Source: Bacteroidales bacterium (GTDB lineage: Bacteria; Bacteroidota; Bacteroidia; Bacteroidales; UBA10428). Taken from it: a stretch of DNA of 64,000 bases. The position numbers and the translations under genes are program-made. The notes beneath the pieces are model-generated. The model worked only from the letters and a program-made list of their open reading frames with translations, made no database searches and was not told the origin of the DNA. Numbering within the stretch: the first letter of the stretch is position 1; each line of letters opens with the position of its first letter. The stretch is from NCBI GenBank assembly GCA_041737175.1, contig JBGSSF010000002.1, positions 10,348-74,347 of the forward strand, given 5' to 3'. Shown here one piece after another: positions 1,169 through 23,634 of this stretch.

Positions 1169-1229
1169 GATAAGGTAATAGTTGAAGACATGAACAGCGG
1201 TGAATCTGAATTTTGATATTATTGTGGGG

Positions 1230-1252
1230 AAGCGTAGTTGCAAACTACGCTT
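1230..1252. repeat. REP-like palindrome AAGCGTAGTT-GCA-AACTACGCTT
   Basis: Perfect 10-bp stem. The same arms occur at 51046/51323, and a half copy at 57556. Confidence 0.7.
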
Positions 1253-1331
1253 AGCTGGTGTAATTTACCTATCACAACCATCACAACTCTTAATTTCTCA
1301 CAATCCCATTCATAATTCATCATAATTCTTA

Positions 1332-1339
1332 TATCTTTG
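1332..1339 (+). promoter_or_regulatory. Putative Bacteroidota -7 promoter element (TATCTTTG) for ileS
   Basis: Matches TAnnTTTG about 50 nt upstream of the ileS ATG. Confidence 0.5.
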
Positions 1340-1386
1340 TACACCTTTTTATTTCGCTTTTTTACATTGTAATTGCTTGATAGATA

Positions 1387-4300
1387 ATGAGTAATAAATA
1401 TCCTGAATACAAGAGTTTCAGTTTGTCCGCGATCAACCGGGAGATTCTCAGCATATGGAATAAGGAGAAGACCTTTGAGAAAAGCCTGGAAGTCCGCCAG
1501 GGCCGTCCGCTGTACGTGTTTTACGAAGGGCCTCCTTCGGCCAACGGCATGCCCGGCATTCACCACGTGATCGCGCGCACCATCAAAGATATTTTTTGCC
1601 GTTACAAGACCATGAAGGGGTACCTGGTGGAACGCAAGGCCGGCTGGGATACCCATGGCCTCCCGGTGGAGCTGAAAGTGGAAACCTCACTGGGCATCAC
1701 CAAGGAGGACATCGGACAGAAGATCAGCATCACCGATTTCAACGCAAAATGCAAGAGCGATGTGATGACATACACCCGCGAATGGGAGGACCTCACGATG
1801 AAAATGGGGTACTGGGTGGACATGGAAAACCCCTACATCACTTACGACAACCGCTATATAGAGAGTCTGTGGTACCTGCTGAAGGAATTGTTCCGGAAGG
1901 GACTTTTGTACAAGGGCTATTCCATTCAACCTTATTCCCCCGCCGCCGGAACGGGACTGAGCACCCACGAGCTGAATCAGCCGGGTTGCTACCGCGATGT
2001 GAAAGACACCACCTGCGTGGCGCAGTTTGAGGCCATCCAGAATGCCAAATCGGAATTCCTTTTCAAGAACACTGATACGCCGGTGTATTTCCTGGCCTGG
2101 ACCACCACGCCGTGGACACTTCCTTCGAACACCGCGCTTGCCGTTGGTTCCAACATCACGTATCTGAAAGTGCGCACCTTCAATCCCTACACACTGGAGC
2201 CGGTGACGCTGGTACTGGCCAAAGACCTGCTGCACAATTACTTCCCCGAGAACAATCAGGCCATTGCCATCGAAGGATTTCAGCCCGGGGACAAACGCAT
2301 TCCCTATAAAGTTACAGGGCATTACCAGGGATCGGAACTGGAAGGCATTTCGTACCACCAGCTCATCAACTGGGTGAATCCCGGGGAAGGTGCTTTCCGC
2401 GTGCTCACCGGCGATTTTGTCACCACCGAGGACGGTACCGGCATTGTGCATATAGCGCCTACCTTCGGCGCCGACGACTTCAGGGTGGCCCGGAAATACG
2501 GGGTCCCCCCGCTGATGGTCACCGATATCAACCGTCACCAGGGGCCGCTGGTGGACAAGAAAGGCCGCTTCATACGGCTGGAGGACCTGGATCCGCAGTT
2601 CACCGCCGCTTCGGTGAATGTCGACGAATACCGGGAATTTGCCGGCCGATTCGTCAAGAATGACTACGATCCCGCGCTGAAGGATGACGATACCACGGTG
2701 GATGTCGATATCGCCGTGTACCTGAAGAAGAGCAACAAGGTTTTCCGCATCGAAAAGCATGTGCACAATTACCCGAACTGCTGGCGAACCGACAAGCCGG
2801 TGCTGTATTATCCGATGGACGCGTGGTTCATCAAAACCACCGCGCTGAAGGACAAGCTGATAGAACTGAACAACACCATCAACTGGAAACCCGAGTCCAC
2901 CGGTACAGGAAGGTTCGGGAAGTGGCTGGAGAACCTGGTCGACTGGAACCTGTCGCGTTCCCGCTACTGGGGCACGCCTTTACCTGTATGGATTACCGGG
3001 GACCAGCAGGAGAGCAAATGCATTGGTTCGGTGACGGAGCTGAAAGAAGAGATCGGGAAGGCCATCGCGGCCGGATTCATGAAGGATAATCCATTCAGGG
3101 ACTATACGGAAGGCGATTTCAGCAAGGCGAACTACGAAAAGTTCGACCTGCACCGGCCGTTTGTGGATGAGATATTCCTGGTCTCGGACACCGGGAAAAA
3201 GATGATCCGCGAGACGGACCTGATTGACGTATGGTTTGACTCGGGCGCCATGCCATATGCCCAGATGCACTATCCCTTTGCCATGAAAGGAAAGGAATTT
3301 GAAAAATACTACCCGGCCGATTTCATTGCTGAAGGCGTTGACCAGACACGCGGGTGGTTTTTCACCCTGCATGCCATTGCCGTAATGCTTTTTGACTCGG
3401 TGGCCTACAAAAATATCATCAGCAACGGACTTTGCCTCGACAAGAACGGGAACAAGATGTCGAAAAGGCTCGGCAACGCCGTGGATCCCTTTGATGTGAT
3501 CGCCCAGCACGGGTCGGACCCGCTGCGGTGGTACCTGATCACCAACGCCCAGCCGTGGGACAACCTCAAGTTCGACACCGACGGCGTGGATGAGGTGAAG
3601 CGCAAGTTTTTCGGCACCCTTTACAACACCTATTCCTTCTTCGCGCTGTATGCCAACGTCGACGGATTCGCCTACCGGGAGCCCGAAATACCCGTGCGGA
3701 AACGGCCGGAGATCGACCGGTGGATCATATCGCTGCTGAATTCGCTGGTGCGGGATGTGGAATCGTACTATGAAGACTATGAGCCCACCAAAGCCGGCAG
3801 AACCATCCAGGATTTTGTGACCGAAAACCTGAGCAACTGGTACGTGCGCCTGAACCGCAAGCGATACTGGGGCGGAGAATACAACGAGGACAAGCTGGCG
3901 GCCTACCAGACACTGTATACCTGTCTCATGACCGTGGCAAAAATATCAGCTCCCCTGGCACCCTTTTACATGGATAAGATCTACCGCGACATGAACCACA
4001 TGACCAAAAAGGACGATCAGCCGTCGGTTCACCTGGTGGAGTTTCCCAGGGCTGATCTTTCACTGATCGACAGCGAGCTGGAGGAAAAGATGGAGCTGGC
4101 CCAGAACATGTCGTCGATGGTGCTGGGACTGCGGAGGAAGGTCAACATCAAAGTGCGCCAGCCCCTGCAGAAGATCATGGTTCCCGTGCCCGACCCGGGT
4201 TTCATTGCCCGTTTCGAAGCTGTGAAGCCCCTGATCCTCAACGAAGTGAACGTGAAAGAGCTGGAATATCTCAAGGATACCTCGGGCATCCTGGTGAAGA

Positions 4301-4824
4301 AAATCAAGCCGAACTTCAAGCTTCTGGGACCCCGGTACGGCAAGCTGATGAAAGAGATCGCACAGGTCGTGAGCGGCTTCCGGCAGGAGGATATCGCCGC
4401 TTTTGAAGCGGCCGGTTCCTATGAGATCTCCGCGGGCGGTGAAAAGATCACCCTGCAGGCCGATGATGTGGAGATCACATCGGAAGACATCCCCGGATGG
4501 CTGGTGGCCAGTGAAGGCAGGCTCACCGTAGCCCTGGATCTGAACATTACGCAGGAGCTGAAAGACGAGGGCATTGCCAGGGAATTCGTGAACAGGATCC
4601 AGAACCTGAGGAAGGAAAGCGGATTTGAAGTAACCGACAAGATTGCCGTGGAGATCCAGCGGCATGAACTGATCGATTCCGCCGTGGAAAATTTCAGCGA
4701 TTATATTGCGGCGCAAACGCTGGCGAAATCGGTAAAGCTGGTGGACATGACAGACCTCTCCGATGCACAGCCGGTGGAGATCGATGAAAATGTACTGACC
4801 CACTTGCGCGTTAGTAAGATTTAG
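1387..4824 (+). CDS. ileS: Isoleucine--tRNA ligase (type 2)
   Basis: GPPSANGMPGIHH (HIGH), WTTTPWTLPSN, KMSKR motifs; 1145 aa. Confidence 0.97.
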   Translation: MSNKYPEYKSFSLSAINREILSIWNKEKTFEKSLEVRQGRPLYVFYEGPPSANGMPGIHHVIARTIKDIFCRYKTMKGYLVERKAGWDTHGLPVELKVETSLGITKEDIGQKISITDFNAKCKSDVMTYTREWEDLTMKMGYWVDMENPYITYDNRYIESLWYLLKELFRKGLLYKGYSIQPYSPAAGTGLSTHELNQPGCYRDVKDTTCVAQFEAIQNAKSEFLFKNTDTPVYFLAWTTTPWTLPSNTALAVGSNITYLKVRTFNPYTLEPVTLVLAKDLLHNYFPENNQAIAIEGFQPGDKRIPYKVTGHYQGSELEGISYHQLINWVNPGEGAFRVLTGDFVTTEDGTGIVHIAPTFGADDFRVARKYGVPPLMVTDINRHQGPLVDKKGRFIRLEDLDPQFTAASVNVDEYREFAGRFVKNDYDPALKDDDTTVDVDIAVYLKKSNKVFRIEKHVHNYPNCWRTDKPVLYYPMDAWFIKTTALKDKLIELNNTINWKPESTGTGRFGKWLENLVDWNLSRSRYWGTPLPVWITGDQQESKCIGSVTELKEEIGKAIAAGFMKDNPFRDYTEGDFSKANYEKFDLHRPFVDEIFLVSDTGKKMIRETDLIDVWFDSGAMPYAQMHYPFAMKGKEFEKYYPADFIAEGVDQTRGWFFTLHAIAVMLFDSVAYKNIISNGLCLDKNGNKMSKRLGNAVDPFDVIAQHGSDPLRWYLITNAQPWDNLKFDTDGVDEVKRKFFGTLYNTYSFFALYANVDGFAYREPEIPVRKRPEIDRWIISLLNSLVRDVESYYEDYEPTKAGRTIQDFVTENLSNWYVRLNRKRYWGGEYNEDKLAAYQTLYTCLMTVAKISAPLAPFYMDKIYRDMNHMTKKDDQPSVHLVEFPRADLSLIDSELEEKMELAQNMSSMVLGLRRKVNIKVRQPLQKIMVPVPDPGFIARFEAVKPLILNEVNVKELEYLKDTSGILVKKIKPNFKLLGPRYGKLMKEIAQVVSGFRQEDIAAFEAAGSYEISAGGEKITLQADDVEITSEDIPGWLVASEGRLTVALDLNITQELKDEGIAREFVNRIQNLRKESGFEVTDKIAVEIQRHELIDSAVENFSDYIAAQTLAKSVKLVDMTDLSDAQPVEIDENVLTHLRVSKI

Positions 4825-4886
4825 GGAACTAATGTTTTTCCTAACCATTTTTTTATTACATTTAGAAATACTAAAAACCCAGAGTT

Positions 4887-5264
4887 ATGTCAGAAAAGAC
4901 AAGGTATTCCGATGAAGAACTCGAGGAGTTCAGAAAGATCATACTGGATAAGCTCGATCAGGCGAAGAAGGATTTTGATCTCCTGAAAAGTGCTATCACA
5001 CAGAGCGAAAGCAATGACACGCAAGATACCTCACCTACATTCAAGGTTCTCGAAGAAGGCGCAGCCACCCTCTCGAAAGAAGAGGCCGGAAGGCTTGCCC
5101 AGCGGCAGCAGAAATTCATTCAGCATTTGCAGGGCGCGCTGGTGAGGATCGAGAACAAGACCTACGGCATCTGCCGCGAGACCGGCAAGCTCATCTCCAA
5201 GGAAAGGTTGAGGGCTGTTCCGCATGCCACGCTTTCGATAGATGCCAAGCAGAAACAGCGTTGA
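4887..5264 (+). CDS. TraR/DksA family transcriptional regulator
   Basis: Coiled coil plus YGICRETGKLISKERLRAVPHATLSI; usual ileS-dksA-lspA context in Bacteroidota. Confidence 0.9.
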   Translation: MSEKTRYSDEELEEFRKIILDKLDQAKKDFDLLKSAITQSESNDTQDTSPTFKVLEEGAATLSKEEAGRLAQRQQKFIQHLQGALVRIENKTYGICRETGKLISKERLRAVPHATLSIDAKQKQR

Positions 5265-5274
5265 TCAGCGGTTT

Positions 5275-5970
5275 ATGAAGATTCCCAACGGCGTTAAGGC
5301 CTTATTGCTGATCGTGCTTGTACTGGCTGTTGATCAGATCGTAAAGTTCCATATCAAGACCTCCATGACCCTGGGGGAAAGCATTTATGTGCTGGGCAAC
5401 TGGTTCCAGATCCGTTTCATCGAAAACCCGGGCATGGCATTTGGTTTGGATATTCCCGGCAAATGGGGCAAACCCCTGCTCACGATTTTCAGGATCATCG
5501 CCGTGATCGTGATCGGCTGGTACCTGAGGCAACTGGTGCTCAAAAAGGTGAGCACCGGGCTCATCCTATGCGTGGCTCTGATCTTTGCAGGCGCTACAGG
5601 CAATATCATCGACAGCGTTTTTTACGGACGCATATTCAACGAAAGCACCTATTTCACCGTGGCATCGCTGTTCCCTGAAGAAGGCGGCTATGCCCCCCTG
5701 CTTTACGGCAAGGTGGTGGACATGCTTTACTTCCCCGTTATACACGGGCATTACCCGCAATGGTTCCCCGGCAGGGCAGGAGAAGAGTTCATCTTTTTCA
5801 GGCCCATTTTCAACCTCGCGGACACCTCCATCACCACCGGGATCCTGACGATACTGGTGTTTCAGAAGAGGTTTTTTCACCATCAATTGGAAGAGGGACA
5901 AGGGACGAGGGACGAGGGACAAGGAGAAGCGGCAGTGGATGGGGCAGAGGAAGTGAACCGTAAACAGTAA
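5275..5970 (+). CDS. lspA: Lipoprotein signal peptidase II; C-terminal tail is repeat-encoded
   Basis: DQIVK, NPGMAFG, GNIID, VVDM, FNLAD motifs. ATG 5275 preferred over 5242. Confidence 0.93.
   Translation: MKIPNGVKALLLIVLVLAVDQIVKFHIKTSMTLGESIYVLGNWFQIRFIENPGMAFGLDIPGKWGKPLLTIFRIIAVIVIGWYLRQLVLKKVSTGLILCVALIFAGATGNIIDSVFYGRIFNESTYFTVASLFPEEGGYAPLLYGKVVDMLYFPVIHGHYPQWFPGRAGEEFIFFRPIFNLADTSITTGILTILVFQKRFFHHQLEEGQGTRDEGQGEAAVDGAEEVNRKQ
5894..5924 (+). repeat. 7-mer AGGGAC(A/G) x4 inside the lspA 3' end
   Basis: AGGGACA AGGGACG AGGGACG AGGGACA; same unit as at 10254 and 21131. Confidence 0.85.
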
Positions 5971-6003
5971 AAAGTAAAAGGTAAACAGTAAGAAGTAAAC
6001 AGT
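5953..6003. repeat. 7-mer GTAAA(C/A)(A/G) array, downstream arm of cassette 1
   Basis: About 6-7 units; contains the lspA stop codon; inverted relative to 6432-6522. Confidence 0.9.
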
Positions 6004-6023
6004 TGCAGGCTAGTATTATAAAG

Positions 6024-6401
6024 TCATGTCTGACAAAATAAATGAGCCTTATCCATCATGGTTTTGAGCATTTTACCAACAGACAGACAGAAATCCACTA
6101 ATGCAATTTTTTCATTTTCGTTTAAATATTCACATTCTGAAGCGATTTCAATCCAATGTCTGGTTTCATATTGTTCTGAATCTGCATCAGACAATTTTGA
6201 AATGAAATGCCTTTCATATTTACGCTTTCCCCAGGCTTCTGCAATCTGTGCCCCGATGGATCTGGAAGAGCGTCTTATTTGATCAGTCAAAGAAAATCTT
6301 TCTTCTGCTGGAAATTTTTGACTTAATTCAAATATGGCTTTTGATAATTTTCTTGACGTTATATACACATCCAATTCGGTATAACTTCTAACATAACTCA
6401 T
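6024..6401 (-). CDS. Four helix bundle protein (TIGR02436 / 23S rRNA IVP family), copy 1
   Basis: L.VY...FP.EE.FSLTDQIRRSSRSI.AQIAEAW..R.Y..HF.SKL family signature; 125 aa; AT-rich. Confidence 0.93.
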   Translation of the reverse strand: MSYVRSYTELDVYITSRKLSKAIFELSQKFPAEERFSLTDQIRRSSRSIGAQIAEAWGKRKYERHFISKLSDADSEQYETRHWIEIASECEYLNENEKIALVDFCLSVGKMLKTMMDKAHLFCQT

Positions 6402-6431
6402 TGCTTCTAACTTTTAAATAACTATTGTTAC

Positions 6432-6522
6432 ATTCTACTTTTTACTTTTCACCTTTTACCTTTTACTTTTTACTGTTCACTTTTTACCTTTTACTGTTTA
6501 CTTTTTACTGTTTACCTGTTAC
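6432..6522. repeat. 7-mer (T/C)(T/G)TTTAC array, upstream arm of cassette 1
   Basis: About 12-13 units ending next to the yraN stop; reverse complement of the 5953-6003 unit. Confidence 0.9.
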
Positions 6523-6523
6523 C

Positions 6524-6886
6524 CTACCTCGCCACCGGGTGAAAAGCTTCCTTGACATGTTCCACCACGGTGCGGCTGTGGTCGATGATGATGGAGACGA
6601 TGTCGAAACGGACGTCGAGGTCGAGGTTGTGGCTGAAGATGTACCGCTCGGCGGCGAATATCAGGGAGCGCTGCTTGCGGAAGTCCACAGCGGTGTAGGG
6701 TTCACCCCAGGAATTTCCAGTGCGGGTTTTCACTTCGGCAATCACCAGCTGATCCCTGTCGCGCGCAATGATGTCGACTTCGGTGTGTTTGAAACGCCAG
6801 TTGCGTTCGAGGATCTCATACCCTTCCTCCAGTAAATATTCAACGGCGAGGTTCTCGCCCTGCTTGCCAAAACTGATATTGTCCAT
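6524..6886 (-). CDS. YraN family protein (UPF0102)
   Basis: G..GE..A..YL...GY.ILERNWR...EVDIIA...EVKTR, RFDIV. Confidence 0.92.
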   Translation of the reverse strand: MDNISFGKQGENLAVEYLLEEGYEILERNWRFKHTEVDIIARDRDQLVIAEVKTRTGNSWGEPYTAVDFRKQRSLIFAAERYIFSHNLDLDVRFDIVSIIIDHSRTVVEHVKEAFHPVAR

Positions 6887-6916
6887 AACGTATTGTTATT
6901 ATTGTTTCAAATAATG

Positions 6917-6966
6917 CTTCGACTCCGCTCAGCATGACACGCCAGTCACCCTGAGCGGAGTCGAAG
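6917..6966. repeat. REP-like hairpin, family A, minimal copy
   Basis: CTTCGACTCCGCTCAGCATGAC-ACGCCA-GTCACCCTGAGCGGAGTCGAAG; 22-bp near-perfect arms. Confidence 0.9.
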
Positions 6967-6971
6967 GGCGC

Positions 6972-7874
6972 TCAGAAGGTCATCCTGCAACCCTTATCCC
7001 CTACTTCCAGTCTCACCTCCCTCCCCAACACCAGACTCAGGTTCGGGTTGCCGTGGCCGGCGGGAAAGCCGAACATGACCGGGTAACCCTGGCCGGCAAC
7101 CGCTTCAAGGATGATTTCATGGGCCGGTTTGCGGAAGCCTGATGGAGATGTTTTCATGTTGAGCATACCTCCCACGATCAGGGCCTGCAATCCTTCGAGC
7201 TTACCCCGCAGTTTCAGGTTCATGATCATGCGGTCGATGTGGTAGAGGTATTCGCCCAGGTCCTCGATGAACAATATCTTTCCCCGGGTATCCAGGTCCA
7301 TGCAGGTACCGGTCATGCTGTACAGCACCGACAGGTTTCCGCCGATCAGGATGCCTTCCGCCGTGCCAGGAATGTTCAGGCGGTGAGGCCGGAGGGTATA
7401 TTCCTTCAGTTCGCCGAACAGCACCGAGCGTAAGGAATCAAAAGAGGCGACGTCGGGCACGGCAGGGGGGATGGCACGGAGCATGGCGCCATGCAGGCTT
7501 TCGGTTCCCAGGCATTGCTGCATGAAGGCATGGATGATGGTGATATCGCTGTAACCAACGATCCATTTGGGATGTTGGAGGAAGTTGCCGAACCTGAGCC
7601 TGTCGATGATGCGGATGCTGCCATAGCCGCCACGGGCGCACAGAATGGCGCGGATACGGGGATCATCGAGCATGTCCTGGAAATCCGCCGCGCGCTGGTT
7701 ATCGGTGCCGGCAAAGGAATTGCGCCGTTTGAACAGATGTTTGCCGAACACCGCGTGCAGACCCCAGGAACGGAGGATGTCGACGGCCGGCTGGATTTCC
7801 TGCTCGGCGAGACATCCTGCAGGCGCCGTAATCCCTACGGTATCACCCGGGCGGAGGCTGGGGGGCTGGATCAT
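6972..7874 (-). CDS. LD-carboxypeptidase (peptidase S66)
   Basis: ARGGYG, GYSDIT, GGNLS, FIED, GH motifs. Confidence 0.92.
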   Translation of the reverse strand: MIQPPSLRPGDTVGITAPAGCLAEQEIQPAVDILRSWGLHAVFGKHLFKRRNSFAGTDNQRAADFQDMLDDPRIRAILCARGGYGSIRIIDRLRFGNFLQHPKWIVGYSDITIIHAFMQQCLGTESLHGAMLRAIPPAVPDVASFDSLRSVLFGELKEYTLRPHRLNIPGTAEGILIGGNLSVLYSMTGTCMDLDTRGKILFIEDLGEYLYHIDRMIMNLKLRGKLEGLQALIVGGMLNMKTSPSGFRKPAHEIILEAVAGQGYPVMFGFPAGHGNPNLSLVLGREVRLEVGDKGCRMTF

Positions 7875-7910
7875 GATGACGTATTTGGTTTGAAATAATG
7901 GGGTTTTGAA

Positions 7911-7918
7911 TATATTTG
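7911..7918 (+). promoter_or_regulatory. Putative -7 promoter element (TATATTTG) upstream of metG
   Basis: TAnnTTTG match followed by CA. Confidence 0.45.
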
Positions 7919-7964
7919 CAAGGACTAAATATAATGAATTTCTATAAATTTTTGTAATACGATG

Positions 7965-8182
7965 CTTCGACTCCGCTCAGCATGACACGCCAGTCATAGC
8001 TCAGCATGACACGCCAGTCATAGCTCAGCATGACACGCCAGTCATAGCTCAGCATGACACGCCAGTCATAGCTCAGCATGACACGCCAGTCATAGCTCAG
8101 CATGGCACACCAGTCATAGCTCAGCATGACACGCCAGTCATAGCTCAGCATGACACGCCAGTCATCCTGAGCGGAGTCGAAG
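7965..8182. repeat. REP-like hairpin family A with an internal 24-bp unit repeated about 8 times
   Basis: Arms CTTCGACTCCGCTCAG / CTGAGCGGAGTCGAAG enclose GCTCAGCATGACACGCCAGTCATA x8 (7975-8165; one variant unit). Confidence 0.92.
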
Positions 8183-8214
8183 GATAATAATCAACTATTA
8201 TTTTACACCATAAA

Positions 8215-10248
8215 ATGTCCAAAAACTTTAAACGTCATCTCATCACCGCCGCCCTTCCCTATGCCAACGGGCCGGTACACATCGGGCACCTGGCCGGGGT
8301 TTACGTGCCGGCTGACATTTATGTCCGTTATCTCCGGCTGCGCGGAGAGGATGTCCTGTTCATCTGCGGGTCGGATGAGCACGGCGTGCCCATCACCATC
8401 AAAGCCCGCCAGGAAAAGGTAAGTCCCAGGGATATCGTGGATAAATACCACACCATGATCCGGGATTCCTTCGCGGAATTTGGCATTTCGTTCAGCATTT
8501 ATTCGAGGACCACATCGGAGACGCATTACAGGACTGCTTCGGAATTCTTTCGCACGTTGTATGACCGGGGTGACTTCATTGAGAAGACCACCCGGCAGTA
8601 TTATGACGAGGAGGTGAAGCAATTCCTGGCCGACCGGTATATAACAGGCACCTGCCCCCATTGCGGCAATGACAGCGCCTATGGCGACCAATGCGAGAAG
8701 TGCGGCACATCGCTGAATGCCACCGACCTCATCCATCCCCGTTCTACCATCAGCGGAAGTCAGCCGGTAATGAGAGACACGCTGCACTGGTTTCTGCCGC
8801 TGGACAAATATGAGCCTTTCCTCCGGAAGTGGATACTCGAAGAGAACAAAGATTGGAAATCCAATGTATACGGGCAGTGCAAATCGTGGCTCGATGCGGG
8901 ATTGCAGCCGCGCGCGGTGAGCCGTGACCTCGACTGGGGCATTCCCGTACCAGTGGAAGGGGCAACCGGCAAGGTGCTGTATGTGTGGTTTGATGCGCCC
9001 ATCGGATATATCTCGGCAACACGCGAACTGACTCCCGACTGGGAAAAGTACTGGAAGGACAAGGAAACCAGGATGATCCATTTCATCGGGAAGGACAACA
9101 TCGTGTTTCACTGCATCATCTTCCCGGCCATGCTGAAGGCCGAGGGAAGCTATATCCTCCCCGACAATGTGCCGGCCAATGAATTTCTGAATCTCGAAGG
9201 TGACAAGATATCCACGTCGCGCAACTGGGCGGTGTGGCTCCATGAATACCTGCAGGATTTCCCGGGCAAGCAGGACGTGCTGCGTTATGTGTTGTGCGCG
9301 ACGATGCCCGAAACCAAGGACAATGATTTCACCTGGAAGGATTTCCAGTCGCGCAACAACAATGAGCTCGTTGCCGTGCTGGGCAATTTCGTGAACCGTT
9401 CGCTGGTGCTGACGCAGAAATATTTCGGGGGGAAGGTGCCGGAGGCAGCGGCGCTCACGGAAAGCGACAGGGAAACCCTGGCGGAGATTCCCCGGCTTAA
9501 AGAGGCCGTGGAATACAACCTGGAGAATTTCAGGTTCCGGGATGCATTGAAGGCTGCCATGGACATGGCCCGGCTGGGCAACAAGTACCTGGCGGACGGC
9601 GAGCCCTGGATACTGATCAAGACCGATCCCTTGCGCACGGGCACCATACTGAACATTGCCCTGCAGATCACGGCCAACCTGGCCATCATCACGGAGCCCT
9701 TCCTGCCCCTGTCGGCCAAAAAGATCGCCGGTTTCACCGGCAGGAGCGACATGAAATGGCAGGATGCCGGCCAGTCGGATTTGCTGGAGGCAGGACACAA
9801 GCTGGGTGAGCCCTCCCTGCTGTTTGAGAAAATTGAAGATGAGGCTGTGGAAAATCAGCTTCAGAAACTGCAGAAAACCAAAGAGGCCAACCAGAACAAG
9901 TCGGCCGCCAAGCCGCAGAAGGAGAATATCAGCTACGATGATTTTGCGCGGATGGATATCCGGATCGGGACCATCCTGGAAGCGGTGAAGGTACCCAAGA
10001 CCAAAAAGCTGATGCAGCTGAAGATCGATACCGGCATTGATGTGCGCACCGTGGTATCAGGAATCTCCGAATATTTTGAACCCGGGGTGCTGATCGGCAA
10101 GCAGATCTGCCTGCTGGCCAACCTGGAGCCTCGCGAGATCAAGGGTATTCAATCGCAGGGCATGATATTGCTGGCGGAAGACGCCTCGGGGAAGCTGGTG
10201 TTTGTGACACCGGAGGAAGCAACGAAGGTTGGATCGGAAGTGAAATAG
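8215..10248 (+). CDS. metG: Methionine--tRNA ligase
   Basis: [13 protein letters not shown], Zn knuckle CPHC/CEKC, KISTS, C-terminal tRNA-binding domain. Confidence 0.97.
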
Positions 10249-10253
10249 AAATC

Positions 10254-10384
10254 AGGGACGAGGGACAAGGGACAAGGGACGAGGAAAAACAGAAGCAGCA
10301 GTAGCAGCGGCAGCAGCAGATAGGGCATGCTCCGGACTCCAAACCCAAGACAAACTTGTCCCTCGTCCCTTGTCCCTTGTCCCT
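10254..10384. repeat. Gene-less two-armed cassette: AGGGAC(G/A) x4 / GCA-rich run plus core / T(T/C)GTCCC x4
   Basis: Inverted 7-mer arms at 10254-10284 and 10356-10384, just after the metG stop. Confidence 0.88.
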
Positions 10385-10420
10385 TTTCTTTATATATTTG
10401 TTTCAAATTAACCACAGGTC

Positions 10421-11287
10421 ATGGCCGAGAAAACCGAAAAAGAGTCTTTCTGGGAGAAGTTCAAGCATAAATACAGGTTGTCGATTTACAGGGATGAGAC
10501 TTTTGAAGAAGTGCTCAATGTGCGGCTCACCAAGCTGAATGTGATGTCCATTGTGGGTATCGGAACTTTACTTTTCCTGGTCATCGTGATATCGATCATT
10601 GCCTATACTCCTGTCCGGGAACTTATACCGGGTTATCCCGACCAGGAGACCATCCGGAACATATACATGAACAATTACCGGCTCGATTCACTGGAACTGG
10701 AGATCACCAAGCGGGATGCCTACTTTGAGAATCTGCGGAGGATCATTGCCGGTGAGGGGCCTCTTGACCCGGCTGAGACCACTTCGGAACCTGAGCCGAC
10801 GAGGCAGGTGAACTTTGTGAGATCGAGGGAGGACTCTGCACTCAGGGCTTTGGTAGAGCCGCGGGATCAGTTCGGTTTGTCGGTCATTGAAAGCCGGAAG
10901 GGAAAGCCTGCTTTTTTCAGCGTGCTTTTCTTTCCACCGGTGAAAGGGATGATCACCAACTCGTTCAACAGCGGGATGGACCATTACGGCACCGATATCG
11001 TGGCCGGCACCAACGAGGTGGTGAAGGCAACGCTTCCCGGCACGGTGACCATGGCAGGCTGGACCCTGGAGACAGGTTATGTCATTCAACTGCAGCATGC
11101 CGACAACATCATTTCGGTATACAAGCACAACGCGGAGTTGCTGAAGCACATCGGTGACCATGTGAAAGCCGGCGAGCCCATTGCCATCATCGGGAACTCG
11201 GGAGAGCTCACCACCGGTCCCCACCTGCATTTTGAGCTCTGGTACAGCGGTACACCCGTTAATCCCGAAGACTACATCTCATTCTGA
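10421..11287 (+). CDS. M23 family metallopeptidase
   Basis: HYGTD, YKH, TGPHLHFE motifs; N-terminal TM helix. Confidence 0.92.
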   Translation: MAEKTEKESFWEKFKHKYRLSIYRDETFEEVLNVRLTKLNVMSIVGIGTLLFLVIVISIIAYTPVRELIPGYPDQETIRNIYMNNYRLDSLELEITKRDAYFENLRRIIAGEGPLDPAETTSEPEPTRQVNFVRSREDSALRALVEPRDQFGLSVIESRKGKPAFFSVLFFPPVKGMITNSFNSGMDHYGTDIVAGTNEVVKATLPGTVTMAGWTLETGYVIQLQHADNIISVYKHNAELLKHIGDHVKAGEPIAIIGNSGELTTGPHLHFELWYSGTPVNPEDYISF

Positions 11288-11310
11288 GAGCGTTCACCAC
11301 GCGGTCTGAT

Positions 11311-12471
11311 ATGAAACGACGCATAGCGATCCTCGGATCCACCGGATCAATCGGCACACAGGCGCTGGAAGTCATCCTGCAGCATGAGGATCTTTTTGAG
11401 GTGGTGGCGCTGACGGCTGGGCGCAATGCCGACCTGCTGATTGAACAGGCGCTGCGTTTTGTCCCCCCTTACGTTGTAATTGCCGATGAGGCGGGTTATC
11501 CCCTGGTTCGGGAAGCCCTGGCGAAGCTGCCCGTCAAGGTGCTTGCCGGAACAAAAGCTTTGGCGGAGGTAGCCTGCATTCCGGAGGCGGATATCGTACT
11601 GACCGCCATGGTGGGTTTCTCAGGCCTGCAGCCCACGCTTGCCGCCATCCAACACGGAAAACATATTGCCCTGGCCAACAAGGAGACCCTTGTGGTGGCA
11701 GGATCCCTGATCACCTCCCTGGCCCGGCAGACAGGATCGGACATTTACCCTGTGGATTCGGAGCATTCAGCCATATTCCAGTGCCTGGCAGGCGAAGATC
11801 CCGGCACCGTGGAAAAGCTTATCCTGACTGCCTCGGGCGGTCCATTCCGGGGAATGAAAAGAGAAGCCCTGCAAAAAGTGACCAGCCGGGAGGCCCTCAA
11901 ACACCCCAACTGGTGCATGGGGAACAAGGTAACCATTGATTCGGCATCATTGATGAACAAGGGACTGGAAGTGATTGAGGCGCGCTGGCTCTTTGGCATC
12001 GATCCCGGCAGGATTGAAGTGGTGATCCACCCCCAGAGTATCATCCATTCCATGGTGCAGTTCACCGACGGATCCATCAAGGCACAGCTGGGCCTTCCGG
12101 ATATGCGGCTCCCCATTCAGTATGCGCTGGGATATCCCAACCGCCTGCCATCGGATTTTCCGCGGTTCACCTTTTCGGGATGCCGGGAGTTCACCTTTGA
12201 GGAACCTGACCGGCATCTGTTCCGTAATCTCGACCTGGCTTACAAAGCCCTGCAAGCCGGGGGCAACATGCCGTGCATCATGAATGCCGCCAATGAGGTG
12301 GTTGTGGAGGAGTTCCTGAAGGACAGGATCGGGTTTCTGCAGATGCCGGATGTGATAGAGGAGGTGATGGGGAAGGTGGATTTTATTGCAGAACCGGACT
12401 TCGGGGATCTGGAGGAGACGGATGGGGAGGCGAGGAGGATGGCGAGGGGGGTTGGGAGAGGTAAAAGGTAA
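11311..12471 (+). CDS. dxr: 1-deoxy-D-xylulose-5-phosphate reductoisomerase
   Basis: LGSTGSIG, LANKE, PVDSEHSAIFQ, TASGGPF, NKGLEVIEA. Confidence 0.97.
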   Translation: MKRRIAILGSTGSIGTQALEVILQHEDLFEVVALTAGRNADLLIEQALRFVPPYVVIADEAGYPLVREALAKLPVKVLAGTKALAEVACIPEADIVLTAMVGFSGLQPTLAAIQHGKHIALANKETLVVAGSLITSLARQTGSDIYPVDSEHSAIFQCLAGEDPGTVEKLILTASGGPFRGMKREALQKVTSREALKHPNWCMGNKVTIDSASLMNKGLEVIEARWLFGIDPGRIEVVIHPQSIIHSMVQFTDGSIKAQLGLPDMRLPIQYALGYPNRLPSDFPRFTFSGCREFTFEEPDRHLFRNLDLAYKALQAGGNMPCIMNAANEVVVEEFLKDRIGFLQMPDVIEEVMGKVDFIAEPDFGDLEETDGEARRMARGVGRGKR

Positions 12472-12565
12472 ACAGTAAAAAGTAAAAGGTAAAAAGTAAA
12501 AGGTAAAAAGTAAACAGTAAAAAGTAAAAGGTAAAAAGTAAAAAGTAAAAGGTAAAAAGTAGAAT
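12461..12565. repeat. 7-mer GTAAA(A/C)(A/G) x14 array, upstream arm of cassette 2
   Basis: 14 in-phase units at 12461-12558; contains the dxr stop codon. Confidence 0.92.
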
Positions 12566-12595
12566 GTAGCAATAGTTATTTAAAAGTTAGATGCA

Positions 12596-12973
12596 ATGAG
12601 TTATGTTAGAAGTTATACCGAATTGGATGTGTATATAACATCAAGGAAATTATCTAAAGCCATATTCGAAATCAGTCAAAAATTTCCGGCTGAAGAAAAA
12701 TTCTCTTTGACAGATCAAATAAGACGCTCTTCCAGATATGTCGGAGCGCAGATCGCAGAAGCCTGGGGGAAACGTAAATATGAAAAGCATTTCATTTCAA
12801 AATTGTCAGATGCAGATGCAGAGCAATATGAAACCAGGCATTGGATTGAAATCGCTTCAGAATGTAATTATTTAAACGAAAATGAAAAGAATACATTACT
12901 GGATTTCTGTCTGGCAGTTGGCAAAATGCTCAAATCCATGATTGATAAAGCCCATTTATTTTGTCAGACATAA
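12596..12973 (+). CDS. Four helix bundle protein (TIGR02436 / 23S rRNA IVP family), copy 2
   Basis: By manual alignment, 13 of 125 aa differ from the protein at 6024-6401. Confidence 0.93.
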   Translation: MSYVRSYTELDVYITSRKLSKAIFEISQKFPAEEKFSLTDQIRRSSRYVGAQIAEAWGKRKYEKHFISKLSDADAEQYETRHWIEIASECNYLNENEKNTLLDFCLAVGKMLKSMIDKAHLFCQT

Positions 12974-12995
12974 TATTATAGTATTAGCCTACAAC

Positions 12996-13065
12996 TGTTT
13001 ACTTTTTACTTTTTACTGTTTACTGTTTACTGTTTACTGTTTACTGTTTACTGTTTACTGTTTAC
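12996..13065. repeat. 7-mer T(G/T)TTTAC x10 array, downstream arm of cassette 2
   Basis: 10 in-phase units; reverse complement of the upstream arm. Confidence 0.92.
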
Positions 13066-13098
13066 CTGATCCCGCAAATTTCCCAAAAAAATAAACTC

Positions 13099-13106
13099 TA
13101 TATTTG
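13099..13106 (+). promoter_or_regulatory. Putative -7 promoter element (TATATTTG) for rseP
   Basis: TAnnTTTG followed by CA, about 22 nt before the ATG. Confidence 0.55.
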
Positions 13107-13128
13107 CACCTAAATTAAAACAATCTAC

Positions 13129-14484
13129 ATGGGCGTTGTCATTCAGATCAGCCAGTTATTGCTGAGCTTATCCATCCTGATTATTCTGCACGAGCTGGGA
13201 CATTTTATTTTCGCACGGATTTTTCATACCCGGGTTGAGAAGTTCTACCTGTTTTTTGACCCCTGGTTCTCGCTTTTCAAAATCAAGCGCGGGGATACCG
13301 AGTACGGTATCGGCTGGCTGCCGCTTGGCGGGTATGTGAAGATTTCGGGCATGATCGATGAATCGATGGATAAGGAGCAGATGAAACAGCCCCCGCAACC
13401 CTGGGAATTCAGGTCGAAACCCACGGGACAGCGCCTGCTGATCATGTTGGGCGGCGTAATGGTGAACCTGATCCTGGGTTTTATCATTTATGCGGCCGTG
13501 CTTTACACCTGGGGTGAGAAATTCCTTCCCAACAGGAATCTTACCAACGGAATCTGGTGTGTTGACTCCATCGCCCTGGATGCCGGATTCAGAACAGGGG
13601 ACAAGATTATCTCGATCAACGGGGTTGAACCCCAGCGGTATGAAGATATTTACCGGGAGGTGATCTTTGGCGGAACCGTGAAGGTTATCCGCGACAACAA
13701 GACGGATTCCTTCACCATCCCCGGCGACTTTATCGGAAAACTGGTTGAGGAGAGCGGCGTAATGCTGTTTTATCCCAGGGTTCCCTTTATCATCCGGGAA
13801 GTTCCCGATACTTCCGTGAACAGCCAGGCCGGACTGAAGCCGAAGGATCAGGTGATGAGCGTCAACGGAGTGCCCATCCGGTTTTATGACGAGTACCTGG
13901 GTCTTGTGGATACACTCGAACCCGGACCCATCACCGCTGAAGTATTGCGGGACGGGAAAACGGTACCGCTTGCCCTGATGCTCACCCCGCAAAAGAAACT
14001 GGAAGTGCTGACCCTGATCCCCACTTTTGAGGAGCTTGACAGGCTGGGTTTATACAAAATGGAAACCCGCACCTTCAGCTTTGCGCAGGCCATACCGGCA
14101 GGATTCAGGCTGGCCGGTGACAGGCTGGGATTTTATATCAAGCAGTTCAAGCTGATCTTTGATTTTAAGACCGGCGCATATAAGGGACTTGGCGGATTCG
14201 GCACCATTGGCGGGCTGTTCCCGAGAGAATGGGAGTGGCAATCGTTTTGGGAAATAACGGCATTTTTGTCGCTCATCCTGGCTTTCATGAATGTGCTTCC
14301 CATTCCGGGACTCGATGGCGGGCATGTCACTTTCCTGCTTTACGAAATCGTAACCCGGCGGAAACCATCCGATAAATTCATGGAATACGCCCAGATCGTG
14401 GGGATGGTGATTATCATCGGACTGCTGATCTATGCGAACACGAATGATATCCTCCGGTGGATCGAGAGACTGGTGGGGAAATAG
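13129..14484 (+). CDS. rseP: RIP metalloprotease RseP
   Basis: HELGH, PLGGYV, PDZ regions, NVLPIPGLDGG. Confidence 0.96.
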   Translation: MGVVIQISQLLLSLSILIILHELGHFIFARIFHTRVEKFYLFFDPWFSLFKIKRGDTEYGIGWLPLGGYVKISGMIDESMDKEQMKQPPQPWEFRSKPTGQRLLIMLGGVMVNLILGFIIYAAVLYTWGEKFLPNRNLTNGIWCVDSIALDAGFRTGDKIISINGVEPQRYEDIYREVIFGGTVKVIRDNKTDSFTIPGDFIGKLVEESGVMLFYPRVPFIIREVPDTSVNSQAGLKPKDQVMSVNGVPIRFYDEYLGLVDTLEPGPITAEVLRDGKTVPLALMLTPQKKLEVLTLIPTFEELDRLGLYKMETRTFSFAQAIPAGFRLAGDRLGFYIKQFKLIFDFKTGAYKGLGGFGTIGGLFPREWEWQSFWEITAFLSLILAFMNVLPIPGLDGGHVTFLLYEIVTRRKPSDKFMEYAQIVGMVIIIGLLIYANTNDILRWIERLVGK

Positions 14485-14492
14485 GAAGAGGG

Positions 14493-14636
14493 GGAGACAA
14501 GGGGACAAGGGGACAAGGGGACAAGGAGACAAGGAGACAAGGGGACAAGGAGACAAGGAGACAAGGAGACAAGGAGACAAGGAGACAAGGGGACAAGGTG
14601 ACAAGGAGACAAGGGGACAAGGAGACAAGGAGATAA
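14493..14636. repeat. 8-mer GG(A/G)GACAA x18 one-armed array
   Basis: 18 in-phase units immediately after the rseP stop. Confidence 0.92.
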
Positions 14637-14711
14637 ATAGAAATACCAAGAAAACAGGCCGGAAATCAAAAAATATTCTAATTTTACCCGTTCAAATTTA
14701 AAACGTTTCCT

Positions 14712-14903
14712 ATGAACCTGAATATTGTATTATTTGCCTTAGGGCCGACGGAGATTATACTGGTCCTGGTTGTTGTTCTGCTGCTCTTTGGCGGAAGGAA
14801 GATCCCCGAACTCATGAGGGGACTGGGCCAGGGCATGAAGGAATTCAAGAAAGCCTCCAAGGCCGGTGATGAGGAAGACACGACAAAGGAGAAGGAAAAG
14901 TAA
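14712..14903 (+). CDS. tatA: Twin-arginine translocase TatA/TatE subunit
   Basis: [39 protein letters not shown]. Confidence 0.95.
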
Positions 14904-14929
14904 TTTCCAAAGCCTTAACCTGCCGAGCA

Positions 14930-15028
14930 ATGTCACTGGGACCAACCGAAATACTGCTCATTGTTGTTGTATTGCTGTTGCTTGTGGGCGGCAAGATGAT
15001 AGAATATGAGGCAAAACGCCGGGAATAA
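14930..15028 (+). CDS. 32-aa truncated TatA-like peptide (or pseudogene)
   Basis: Translates to MSLGPTEILLIVVVLLLLVGGKMIEYEAKRRE*, paralleling the TatA TM helix. Confidence 0.6.
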   Translation: MSLGPTEILLIVVVLLLLVGGKMIEYEAKRRE

Positions 15029-15049
15029 CATTTTGTAAAGGATATTCGT

Positions 15050-15080
15050 AAAACCTGTCAATGGTATGGCAGGTTTTTTT
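15050..15080 (+). terminator. Rho-independent terminator after the tatA genes
   Basis: AAAACCTGTCA-ATGGTA-TGGCAGGTTTTTTT. Confidence 0.75.
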
Positions 15081-15164
15081 CATTTATTCAGGCAGAGCCT
15101 GAAAAGATAGATCCGACTCAGGCCGGAGCCTGAGCCGAACCTTTTAATAAGTATATTTGTGGCG

Positions 15165-16286
15165 ATGATGCAATTTTTCCTGATCCTGTTTCTTTTTCTG
15201 ATACCCCTGTCGGGTTCCGGCGGTTCCGGGATGACCGACGACAAGGATATGCTGTACGAATACCGCATCGCGCAGCTGAACAAGTTATCCCCGATAGTCC
15301 TGGATTACAACGAAGATGTCAGGAAGTACATTGATTTGTACACGGGCCCCCGCAAGGCTGAAATGGCGAGGATCATCGGGCTTTCCAGGTTGTATTTCCC
15401 GATCTTTGATGACATACTCGACCGGCATTCTCTTCCGCATGAGCTGAAATACCTCACCATCGTTGAATCGGGACTGAATCCGCTGGCGGTGTCCAAATCG
15501 GGCGCCGTGGGATTGTGGCAGTTTCTGCTGAATACAAGCAGGCTGTTTGACCTGGAGGTCAATTCCTATGTGGATGAGCGGCGTGATCCTTATAAATCCA
15601 CCGAATCGGCCTGCCGGTACCTGCATTACCTGAACACCACCTTCAACGACTGGCAGCTGGTGCTTGCTTCCTACAACGGCGGACCCGGCGAAGTCAGAAA
15701 AGCCATTGAAAGGTGCAAGGGTGAGACCGGTTACTGGAAGCTGCGGCCCTACCTGTCGGAGCAGGCGAGAAATTACGTGCCTGCATTCATTGCAGCCTTT
15801 TACCTGATGAATTTCTACGAGCAGCACGGCATTGTTCCCGAAGCTCCTGCTTATGACTACCGGGGACTGGACACGCTGCACATCCGCTATGCCATTACCT
15901 TTGAACAGATCTCATCGTACATTGACCTGCCGGTGGACAAGATCAGGCTGCTGAATCCGGTTTACCGGCGGGATTACATTCCCGAAAAGCCTTCGGGGTC
16001 GGTGCTGGTTCTTCCGGCGGACAAAATACGCCTTTACCTGGAGCATGAGACCAGCATCCTGGGTTTCAGCCTGACGCCACCCGATTATAACCTGATGGTG
16101 CAGCAATCGGGGAATACCACGGGCAAGATCAAAATCGTCCATGTTGTTCAGCCGGGGGAGGTGACGCATAAGATCGCCATGAAGTACGACTGCACCCTGG
16201 AGAATATCAAGATCTGGAATAATATGGAGGGGTTTGAGGTGAAGGCGGGGCAGCAATTGGTTATTTGGATTGAGGAGAAGAAGTGA
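15165..16286 (+). CDS. Lytic transglycosylase (SLT + LysM, MltD-like)
   Basis: IVESGLNP.A.S..GA.GLWQF, DERRDP, SYNGG; C-terminal LysM. Start uncertain (15159-15168). Confidence 0.9.
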   Translation: MMQFFLILFLFLIPLSGSGGSGMTDDKDMLYEYRIAQLNKLSPIVLDYNEDVRKYIDLYTGPRKAEMARIIGLSRLYFPIFDDILDRHSLPHELKYLTIVESGLNPLAVSKSGAVGLWQFLLNTSRLFDLEVNSYVDERRDPYKSTESACRYLHYLNTTFNDWQLVLASYNGGPGEVRKAIERCKGETGYWKLRPYLSEQARNYVPAFIAAFYLMNFYEQHGIVPEAPAYDYRGLDTLHIRYAITFEQISSYIDLPVDKIRLLNPVYRRDYIPEKPSGSVLVLPADKIRLYLEHETSILGFSLTPPDYNLMVQQSGNTTGKIKIVHVVQPGEVTHKIAMKYDCTLENIKIWNNMEGFEVKAGQQLVIWIEEKK

Positions 16287-16297
16287 GTGGGGGACTT

Positions 16298-16456
16298 GGA
16301 GACAAGGGGACAAGGGGAAAAGGGGAAAAGGAGGCAAGGAGACAAGGAGGCAAGGAGACAAGGGGACAAGGAGGCAAGGGGACAAGGGGAAAAGGGGACA
16401 AGGAGACAAGGGGAAAAGGAGGCAAGGGGAAAAGGAGGCAAGGGACAAGGAGATTA
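16298..16456. repeat. 8-mer GG(A/G)G(A/G)(C/A)AA x18 array, upstream arm of cassette 3
   Basis: 18 in-phase units at 16298-16441 plus a 7-mer unit. Confidence 0.92.
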
Positions 16457-16529
16457 TGAAAACAATTATTTATATTTGAGCGTATTTTTTAGAACGTTAT
16501 TTATTTGTTATGTGTAATACTTATTATTT

Positions 16530-16907
16530 ATGGAAAATATTAAAACGCATAGGGACCTTAGGGTTTATAAATTGGCATTTGTAACAGCACAAAAAATTTA
16601 CCAACTCTCAAGGGAATTCCCTACAATTGAGAGATATTCATTAACTGACCAAATTCGAAGAAGTTCACGTTCTGTAGCTGCCAATATTGCTGAGGCTTAT
16701 CGTGCTCGTCGATATCCTGCAGCATTTATTTCTAAACTCAATCAATCTGAGGGCGAGGCAGCAGAGACTCAAGTTTGGCTTGAATTTGCAGAATCTTGCA
16801 ATTACATAGATATGAAACTATGGGACGACTTGTTTAATACTTATGAACAGATCATTGGCATGATCGTAAATATGGTAAATATGCCAGAAAAATGGAAAAT
16901 CGGATAA
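16530..16907 (+). CDS. Four helix bundle protein (TIGR02436 / 23S rRNA IVP family), copy 3, divergent subtype
   Basis: HRDLRVY...FP..ERYSLTDQIRRSSRSVAANIAEAY..RRY..F.SKL...EGEAAETQVWL; AT-rich. Confidence 0.93.
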   Translation: MENIKTHRDLRVYKLAFVTAQKIYQLSREFPTIERYSLTDQIRRSSRSVAANIAEAYRARRYPAAFISKLNQSEGEAAETQVWLEFAESCNYIDMKLWDDLFNTYEQIIGMIVNMVNMPEKWKIG

Positions 16908-16912
16908 ATTTT

Positions 16913-16971
16913 CTCCTTCTCCTTGTCTCCCCTCTCCCCCTCACCTTGTCTCCTTGTCTCCCCCTCTCCCC
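16913..16971. repeat. CCTTGTCT / CCCCTCTC array, downstream arm of cassette 3
   Basis: Reverse complement of the GGAGACAA-type unit; abuts the purF stop. Confidence 0.85.
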
Positions 16972-23441: not shown

Positions 23442-23634
23442 ATGTTTGTTGTGTTTGTTGTGATTGTTGTGGTTGTTGTGATTGTTGTGATTGTTGTGGT
23501 TGTTGTGATTGTTGTGGTTGTTGTGATTGTTGTGGTTGTTGTGATTGTTGTGGTTGTTGTGGTTGTTGTGGTTGTTGTGGTTGTTGTGGTTGTTATGTCT
23601 GCAACGATTCACAACCATCACAACCACCACAACG
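23442..23634. repeat. 9-mer GTG(A/G)TTGTT x17 with a short inverted arm (CACAACCAT/CAC)
   Basis: 17 units at 23442-23594; inverted arm at 23610-23634; lies between leuC and leuD. Confidence 0.9.

Follow-up and report, generated by a model that had tools for sequence, protein, structure and literature searches.

PF05635 genes between inverted heptamer arrays outside ribosomal RNA genes in a Bacteroidales genome

Introduction

PF05635 is a very large protein family that is known in print mainly through the intervening sequences (IVSs) of ribosomal RNA (rRNA) and as a relative of Avd. Tandem repeats of heptamers are a long-noted excess in bacterial genomes, and the short tandemly repeated repetitive (STRR) sequences of cyanobacteria are intergenic heptamer repeats. 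In this study, we describe two cassettes in which a PF05635 gene lies between inverted heptamer arrays, here called arms. They are found in a stretch of 64,000 nucleotides from a Bacteroidales bacterium (GTDB lineage UBA10428; GenBank assembly GCA_041737175.1, contig JBGSSF010000002.1, positions 10,348 to 74,347 of the forward strand). This whole stretch is called the window, and positions refer to it unless a contig is named.

The 23S rRNA IVSs of Coxiella burnetii and Leptospira carry an open reading frame (ORF) for S23p, which is PF05635, in the loop of a stem made by terminal inverted repeats (PMC4990558, source available in part). Heptameric direct repeats, the number of which varies by strain, precede the ORF, and the IVSs are regarded as selfish. 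In Coxiella, the terminal stem has 28 bp and contains RNase III sites, and the strain-variable heptamers upstream of the ORF are GACAGAT. A preprint on bacteria of the candidate phyla radiation, in the portion available, merely notes 23S_rRNA_IVP ORFs in insertions of 16S and 23S rRNA.

Heptamer repeats have been described independently of any such ORF, at least in the available text of the two reports considered here. GGGAATC in Xanthomonas (PMC4692102) and TAACTGA, common to Beggiatoaceae, Cyanobacteria and Bacteroidetes (PMC4679880), form intergenic tandem arrays that are often convergent, with the G-rich strands inward, and that vary in length between relatives. The cassettes share these features. 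The terms “helix bundle”, “intervening sequence” and “S23” have 0 occurrences in the available text of the two papers, and unlike the present work, that text describes neither a link to a gene family nor a cassette with a gene in the loop. We found no publication that ties the PF05635 family to heptamer arrays outside rRNA, in a search that did not extend to supplements and most subscription journals.

Results

Two paralogous cassettes with common limits

The window encodes two ORFs of 378 nucleotides (nt) and 125 amino acids each, at 6024-6401 on the minus strand (copy 1) and at 12596-12973 on the plus strand (copy 2). Both have an array of GTAAA(A/C)(G/A) heptamers on the 5' side and a reverse-complement array on the 3' side. 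Read along the minus strand, copy 1 consists of a 5' arm (6428-6522; 12.6 units according to Tandem Repeats Finder (TRF), span 6428-6515), a leader (6402-6427) that is strongly conserved in copy 2, the coding sequence (Pfam E-value 1e-29), a trailer (6004-6023) common to both copies, and a 3' arm of TGTTTAC-type heptamers (5951-6003; about 6-7 units, TRF 6.3 at 5960-6003). Copy 2, on the plus strand, has a 5' arm of 14.4 units (12461-12568; TRF span 12461-12561), a coding sequence with a Pfam E-value of 3.3e-29, and a 3' arm of 10.3 units with 96% matches (12994-13065); alignment with copy 1 places its leader at 12569-12595 and its trailer at 12974-12993.

A first-pass annotation of the sequence had reported two ORFs in opposite orientation that differ at 13 of 125 amino acids, arms of about 12/6 versus 14/10 units, and common non-coding flanks. 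All of this was borne out. The ORFs also differ at 38 of 378 nt, and the flanks are identical at 37 of 39 nt in the leader and at 24 of 29 nt in the trailer, counted with the first arm unit. Pairwise alignment further confirmed that the similarity stops at the outer edges of the arrays. Homology extending into the neighbouring host genes was looked for in this alignment and was not found. Copy 1 lies between UPF0102 and lspA, copy 2 between dxr and rseP, and these flanking genes are unrelated. An ordinary segmental duplication of host DNA, which has nothing in its favor beyond the existence of two similar stretches, is refuted by these limits, and we assign it practically no weight. An inversion between the copies was also considered and is ruled out, since the relatives G017 and G002 share gene order and orientation. 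The earlier remark that copy 2 separates two commonly adjacent genes is correct: rseP follows dxr at 22 of the 26 distinct loci of the genus at which we surveyed the 3' end of dxr.

The cassettes abut host genes closely. The UPF0102 gene, which is co-oriented with copy 1, has its stop codon at 6524-6526, and the 5' arm of copy 1 starts 1 nt beyond it; the dxr stop codon (12469-12471) is part of the second unit in the 5' arm of copy 2. On the other side of copy 1, the lspA reading frame crosses a half array of 4.4 AGGGACR units (5889-5924, plus strand; delimited by TRF and by the same site in relatives) and finds its stop codon (5968-5970) inside the 3' arm of copy 1, on the opposite strand. 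Going by the sequence, this half array is the surviving arm of an older hairpin that was either gene-less or of another subfamily. Because it persists beside copy 1, the cassette would have landed in that hairpin or mostly replaced it. Downstream of copy 2, rseP has its own TAnnTTTG box, presumably the Bacteroidetes -7 box, 30 nt before the start codon. No RNA run was found to contain the locus. One contig from another study spans 6099-6497 with 6 differences. Contigs from four DNA runs end at the arrays, and joints over the cassettes have sides shorter than 31 nt, which possibly stem from other hairpins or organisms.

Both proteins match PF05635 (103.3 and 101.7 bits, cut-off 33.8) and the NCBIfam model TIGR02436, “four helix bundle protein” (96.8 and 94.4 bits, cut-off 24). 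The nearest solved structures, by sequence match alone, are 2RLD (E 1.4e-6) and 2GSC (E 3.2e-6), in which four-helix bundles assemble into a toroidal homopentamer. Both proteins are close to neutral, with isoelectric points (pI) of 6.8 and 7.7. Matches to the PADLOC defence models are at noise level only (E 0.0016 and 0.0045 at 16 bits), and no homologue was matched in phage records. Our best guess is that the protein binds its own repeat stem.

Age and selection

The copies had been called near-identical, which is too strong a label for 90% identity and a synonymous divergence (dS) of 0.40. Nonsynonymous divergence (dN) is 0.05, and dN/dS, the computation of which had been proposed along with that label, is 0.125 by the method of Nei and Gojobori; 25 of the 38 differences are at third codon positions. 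The ratio implies that the protein has been kept by purifying selection, and the dS value that the copies are not recent. The leader is constrained as well, since only 2 of 39 nt before the start codon differ, against a proportion of synonymous differences (pS) of 0.31, or 31% (binomial P ~9e-5).

On the tree, the two copies are sisters (support 99/99), and the closest other homologue in the 61 genomes searched is 69-74% identical. Such mutual closeness, 90% against at most 74% elsewhere, argues against two independent horizontal acquisitions of related cassettes, as does the distance of 6.5 kb between the copies, the more so as a second pair of paralogs in the genome are also neighbours. Foreign origin would fit the composition of the cassette genes, 32-38% G+C against 44.4% for the genome, and the existence of relatives on plasmids, in 21 records at 43-55% identity, all of them cyanobacterial. 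On balance, we consider separate acquisition very unlikely. The arrangement itself does occur elsewhere: a G-rich 5' array and a C-rich 3' array flank an annotated “four helix bundle protein” in two cyanobacterial examples, NC_019730.1 (OSC7112_RS32210) and NZ_CP046156.1 (GFS31_RS19745).

Host genes nearby have dS values of 0.78-0.99 between this genome and G017, the nearest sampled species, about twice the value for the copies. Judged by this comparison, the copies are younger than the split from G017. As G017 has no cassette at either site, at least one insertion would have taken place in the lineage of our genome after the split. Duplicated flanks were looked for at the arm edges, and none were seen. 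On this tree, copy 2 may or may not be an orthologue of the cassettes that G018 and G029 have between dxr and rseP.

Further cassettes and gene-less hairpins in the same genome

A profile search of the genome, which is 97.6% complete, found 12 PF05635 genes, and reading of their flanks showed that 10 of them have a 5' array matched by a complementary array on the 3' side. Bacteroides thetaiotaomicron, a member of the control set of this search, also gave a PF05635 match. The unit, with a period of 7-10, varies from copy to copy, and in addition to the paired cassettes we found GTGAATA, GATCGAA, GTTTCATGTG, GGGGACAA, GTCTTGCA, GTTGTGCG, AATTAAAG and GTTGTGG types. A segment of 25 kb (contig C10:2447-27215, corresponding to window 1-16868 and 10 kb upstream) accommodates seven of the 12 genes, three of them in the window. 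The third cassette of the window (16290-16971, plus strand) opens with a 5' arm of GGGGACAA-type 8-mers (16290-16453), continues with a PF05635 gene (16530-16907) and closes with an inverted 3' arm (16921-16971). In each of the two closest pairs of paralogs, the genes are oppositely oriented neighbours, with a distance of 6.5 kb and 90% identity in one pair and of 1.4 kb and 72% in the other, which suggests short-range copying.

A genome-wide census of arrays with at least 3.5 copies and a period of 6-12 yielded 430 arrays, 249 of them of period 7. Inverted array pairs spaced 300-900 nt apart number only 9 in the whole genome, and 6 of these enclose a PF05635 gene, so that the association of this family with arrays is far beyond chance. 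The arrays also form dozens of gene-less hairpins, some of which reuse the units of four gene-bearing cassettes (GTAAACA, GATCGAA, GTTTCATGTG and GTTGTGG types), and there are 44 more GTAAACA-type arrays besides the four arms of the paired cassettes. An example of a gene-less hairpin lies behind metG (10254-10385), where (AGGGACA) x4.4 and (CTTGTCC) x4.4 enclose a loop of 70 nt; it is one of nine AGGGACA hairpins.

This abundance lends itself to another explanation, namely that only the gene moves. Hairpins would then be a generic intergenic feature of the host, serving as terminators, insulators or RNA-stability elements, and PF05635 genes would land in their loops. In addition to the 430 arrays, the dozens of hairpins without a gene and the 44 further GTAAACA-type arrays, the position of copy 1 beside the older AGGGACR arm would fit, because it implies that a hairpin was entered or replaced, and so would an ordinary gene resembling pyridoxamine-phosphate oxidase (PNPOx) between inverted 8-mer arrays. 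What this explanation does not predict is that the sequence of the arms follows the clade of the gene and not the site, that a single site has held four arm units, each with a different gene subfamily, and that copies at two unrelated sites share leader, trailer and arm type. We therefore consider it unlikely.

The PNPOx-like ORF, identified by eye, is on contig C11 (231898-232575) between AGTCATGC and CTGCACGA arrays; it could be a cassette with other cargo, or chance. Long solo arrays without an inverted partner nearby are present at 14493-14633 (GGAGACAA x17.6), 23446-23594 (TTGTTGTGG x16.6) and 27815-27954 (GTGCAGTC x17.5), the latter two with units that match arms of gene-bearing cassettes elsewhere on contig C10. 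Inverted hexamer arrays at 32698-32911, (AGCAGT)n and (CCTGCT)n, are a hairpin of the same style inside coding sequence: they run in frame within a 661-amino-acid ORF (31349-33334) and translate to an E/A/V-rich and then a P/A-rich linker. Four relatives have a GGCAGT-armed cassette there, but a decayed cassette is ruled out by the position in frame inside the ORF. Repeats of another kind, a palindrome (GCTTCGACTCCGCTCAG...CCTGAGCGGAGTCGAAG) resembling repetitive extragenic palindromic (REP) elements, flank the LD-carboxypeptidase gene (6917-6970 and 7960-8185); a copy of this palindrome upstream of metG contains a 24-bp unit, GCTCAGCATGACACGCCAGTCATA, eight times at 97% identity.

Genes and arms travel together

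We compared 41 distinct cassettes, 12 from this genome and 29 from relatives, representing more than 25 genomes. Arrays are present on both sides in 37 of the 41, and 30 pass a strict test for inverted 5-mers. The more alike the proteins, the more alike the 5' arms: their mean 5-mer Jaccard similarity goes from 0.02 below 30% protein identity to 0.16 at 60-80% and 0.35 above 80%. Over 39 cassettes, the Mantel correlation between arms and proteins is 0.39, a value reached by none of 5000 permutations, although the non-independence of relatives makes this an overstatement.

Site surveys are more telling than the Mantel test with regard to the joint travel of gene and arms. One and the same gene subfamily has one arm unit at sites that differ between genomes; for example, GTT(C/G)TGCG 8-mers accompany pf7-like genes in G000 as well as at the UPF0102 site in G029. 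At the UPF0102-lspA site, of which we surveyed 23 loci, there are four combinations of subfamily and arm, or a gene-less hairpin, or nothing. Our genome has the GTAAACA cassette there, and G030 an AGGGACA-armed cassette with a different PF05635 subfamily. G029 has GTTCTGCG arms around a gene that is 71% identical to the C10:3837 copy of our genome, which has GTTGTGCG arms and sits at another site; G023 has the arms and the gene start of G029 before its contig ends. G001 retains a broken gene with GTTTTGCA arms, G002 a complete gene-less AGGGAC(G/A) hairpin, and G012 and G015 have nothing at this site.

The 3' end of dxr paints a similar picture. PF05635 sequence is present at 5 of the 26 loci, and of the 22 loci with dxr followed by rseP, three have a PF05635 gene in between, namely our genome, G018, where it is co-oriented and has GTATTCG arms, and G029, where it is flipped. 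The PF05635 gene of G012 is truncated, and that of G015 is flipped and of another subfamily, both with rearranged downstream neighbours. Gene-less GTAATCG-type hairpins occupy the dxr loci of G034, G008 and G023, hairpins with other units are found at further loci, and several loci are empty, with spacers of 60-130 nt. The comparison of sites shows that cassettes have been gained, replaced, flipped and lost at fixed intergenic positions, leaving gene-less hairpins behind.

Some loci of these surveys deserve separate mention. In G012 (L053) and G015 (L056), a reversed LD-carboxypeptidase gene follows dxr and the cassette where others have rseP, so that the rearrangement breakpoint coincides with the cassette arms. 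The dxr-rseP spacers of G023 (L047) and G001 (L067) contain a GTAATCG-type pair on the outside and, nested within it, an AGTC(A/G)TGC-type pair around some 150 nt that hold no gene, which looks like one element inserted in another and then decayed. In G017, REP-like palindromic arrays without heptamer hairpins fill both the dxr-rseP spacer (array of 812 nt) and the UPF0102-lspA spacer (L066 and L071).

The first-pass annotation had proposed that the arm-gene-arm cassette moves as a unit and that the arms are rebuilt or remodelled at each site. The former proposal is supported: the limits of homology, the sister relationship of the copies, the covariation of arms and proteins, and the combinations of subfamily and arm across sites all point to arm, gene and arm as one heritable, relocatable unit. 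The latter is not supported, because orthologues that stay in place vary freely in arm length too.

Arm length changes in place

Four orthologous cassettes behind the same host gene, in G005, G025, G022 and G027, have proteins that are 87-94% identical. Their 5' arms have 8.7, 9.7, 3.7 and 14.8 units, respectively, and their 3' arms 3.5, 7.8, 4.8 and 2.5 units. Arm length therefore changes in place and is not a by-product of moving, most simply by slippage. Seven identical TGTTTAC units in the 3' arm of copy 2 point to a recent local expansion. In these comparisons, we saw no evidence of arms being built anew upon insertion. The order of unit variants, which had been taken as a sign of rebuilding, was dropped from consideration: only the two innermost units of the 5' arms of copies 1 and 2 clearly correspond, and longer runs in common are no more than chance allows with three variants.

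Polarity, folding and expression

The G-rich arm comes first, with the G-rich strands inward, in 36 of the 38 scorable inverted pairs of this genome. One of the two exceptions pairs arrays across two separate hairpins, the other involves an ordinary gene. Across more than 25 genomes, 32 of 33 cassettes with inverted arms have the same polarity. The rule is robust across more than a dozen unrelated-looking units, keeping in mind that unit families are not independent events, and it agrees with the “convergent” GGGAATC pairs of Xanthomonas in the available part of that report (PMC4692102). A fixed polarity is a constraint that any mechanism must explain. It may reflect avoidance of Rho: a C-rich arm transcribed first would be a bare loading site, which a leading G-rich arm prevents whichever strand is transcribed. 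More boldly, the polarity could stem from a break at which both 3' ends are extended from a template.

Templated extension would suit a protein-driven process, in which the four-helix-bundle protein recognizes its own unit as DNA or as RNA and, with the help of a polymerase or nuclease, drives the synthesis or insertion of arrays, gene-less hairpins being non-autonomous derivatives. Extending both 3' ends of a break off one template would produce G-rich strands inward. The common unit of the two arms with their independent copy numbers and unit orders, the covariation of gene and arm unit, and the presence of gene-less hairpins with the units of four cassettes in the same genome also fit, and among the relatives of the family is Avd, which partners the reverse transcriptase of diversity-generating retroelements. 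However, the genome, which is 97.6% complete, yielded no reverse transcriptase (RVT_1, PF00078) and lacks cognate genes for its commonest hairpin families, the pI values are not those of a strongly basic nucleic-acid binder, and simple co-inheritance predicts covariation of gene and arm just as well. We regard this process as improbable, about as much so as movement of the gene alone.

Predicted RNA folds have the arms as a long closing stem in both copies, with -148.5 kcal/mol (z -4.5) for copy 1 and -172 kcal/mol (z -6.9) for copy 2. A TAnnTTTG box is present within 150 nt of the ATG in 3 of the 41 cassettes, against 3.2 expected from shuffles; by comparison, rseP, an M23 gene and ileS do have the box. 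Of the 12 cassettes of this genome, 7 or 8 begin where a co-oriented ORF ends in its stop codon. The genome has a gene for RNase III.

Discussion

Together, our data suggest, with a probability of roughly 60%, that the paired loci are paralogous, self-contained and selfish IVS-like cassettes outside rRNA, each consisting of a PF05635 gene, a leader and a trailer in the loop of a hairpin. The likeness to the IVSs of Coxiella and Leptospira lies in the S23p-family ORF, enclosed by terminal inverted repeats that close a stem (in the cassettes, according to predicted folds), and in the heptamers of varying number. The differences, as far as the available text on IVSs allows them to be stated (PMC4990558), are equally clear. 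The cassettes are not inserted within a 23S rRNA gene, where IVSs occupy helix 25 or 45, but sit behind protein-coding genes. Their arms are long tandem arrays of 6-14 units instead of a unique stem of 28 bp, and purifying selection acts on their ORF, in contrast to the decay of the ORF in Coxiella. Excision by RNase III has been shown for IVSs and is inferred for the cassettes.

A model for the propagation of the cassettes would run as follows. The cassette would lack its own promoter and depend on transcripts that read through from the host gene at whose stop codon it sits. In the read-through RNA, the arms would pair to form a long double-stranded stem, which RNase III may cut in the same way as in rRNA intervening sequences. 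The cut would set the RNA of the cassette free and leave the host message unharmed. Spread would be short-range and free of transposase, most likely via recombination or template switching at the hairpin arrays, and arm copy numbers would shift by replication slippage.

Several observations weigh against this model or limit it. Gene conversion between the copies could give a falsely young age. Neither target-site duplications nor recent insertions were seen, nor a near-identical strain with an empty allele; at a dS of 0.40, the event is old. The sense duplex of the arms is more stable than the antisense duplex in only 23 of 36 cassettes, so that selection on the gene-strand RNA is not demonstrated and a structure at the DNA level fits equally well. 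Four or five of the 12 cassettes of this genome are not behind a co-oriented ORF, and the flipped cassette of G029 would be antisense to read-through. Finally, the commonest hairpin families, AGGGACA (9) and AGTAATG/AGTGATG (8), have no gene with such arms in this genome; hairpins therefore persist, and may spread, without such a gene.

Other known elements also share features with the cassettes. Avd (NF033474, PF22296) has a related four-helix-bundle fold, but the hidden Markov model matches are weak, at 30.3 and 35 bits against an equivalog cut-off of 80, and unlike a diversity-generating retroelement, the genome has neither a reverse transcriptase (PF00078) nor a pair of template and variable repeats. 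MITEs (miniature inverted-repeat transposable elements) and REP elements are likewise short repeats that are scattered over intergenic DNA, form hairpins and include both autonomous and non-autonomous members. However, the sole ORF of the cassettes is PF05635, not a transposase or REP-associated tyrosine transposase (RAYT), no target-site duplication was seen, and the arms are tandem arrays with a family-specific unit.

A more far-reaching idea, which we put forward as speculation and give somewhat better odds than the protein-driven process in its simpler form, is that PF05635 proteins and short-unit hairpin arrays are one self-propagating system. Each clade would recognize its own unit; the cassettes would act autonomously, and the gene-less heptamer or octamer hairpins, of which a genome has hundreds, would derive from them. 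Arrays with the G-rich strand inward would arise where a break or a stalled fork is extended from a template. If this were true, it would account for the long-noted excess of 7-base repeats in bacteria, and rRNA intervening sequences would be a special case of a much larger family.

The significance of the favored IVS-like reading rests on a dated pair of paralogs and on a genus-wide survey of sites. These show that the gene and its inverted arms evolve and relocate as one unit and that this unit decays to gene-less hairpins, which joins two puzzles, that of the PF05635 family and that of the heptamer excess, and makes both of them testable.

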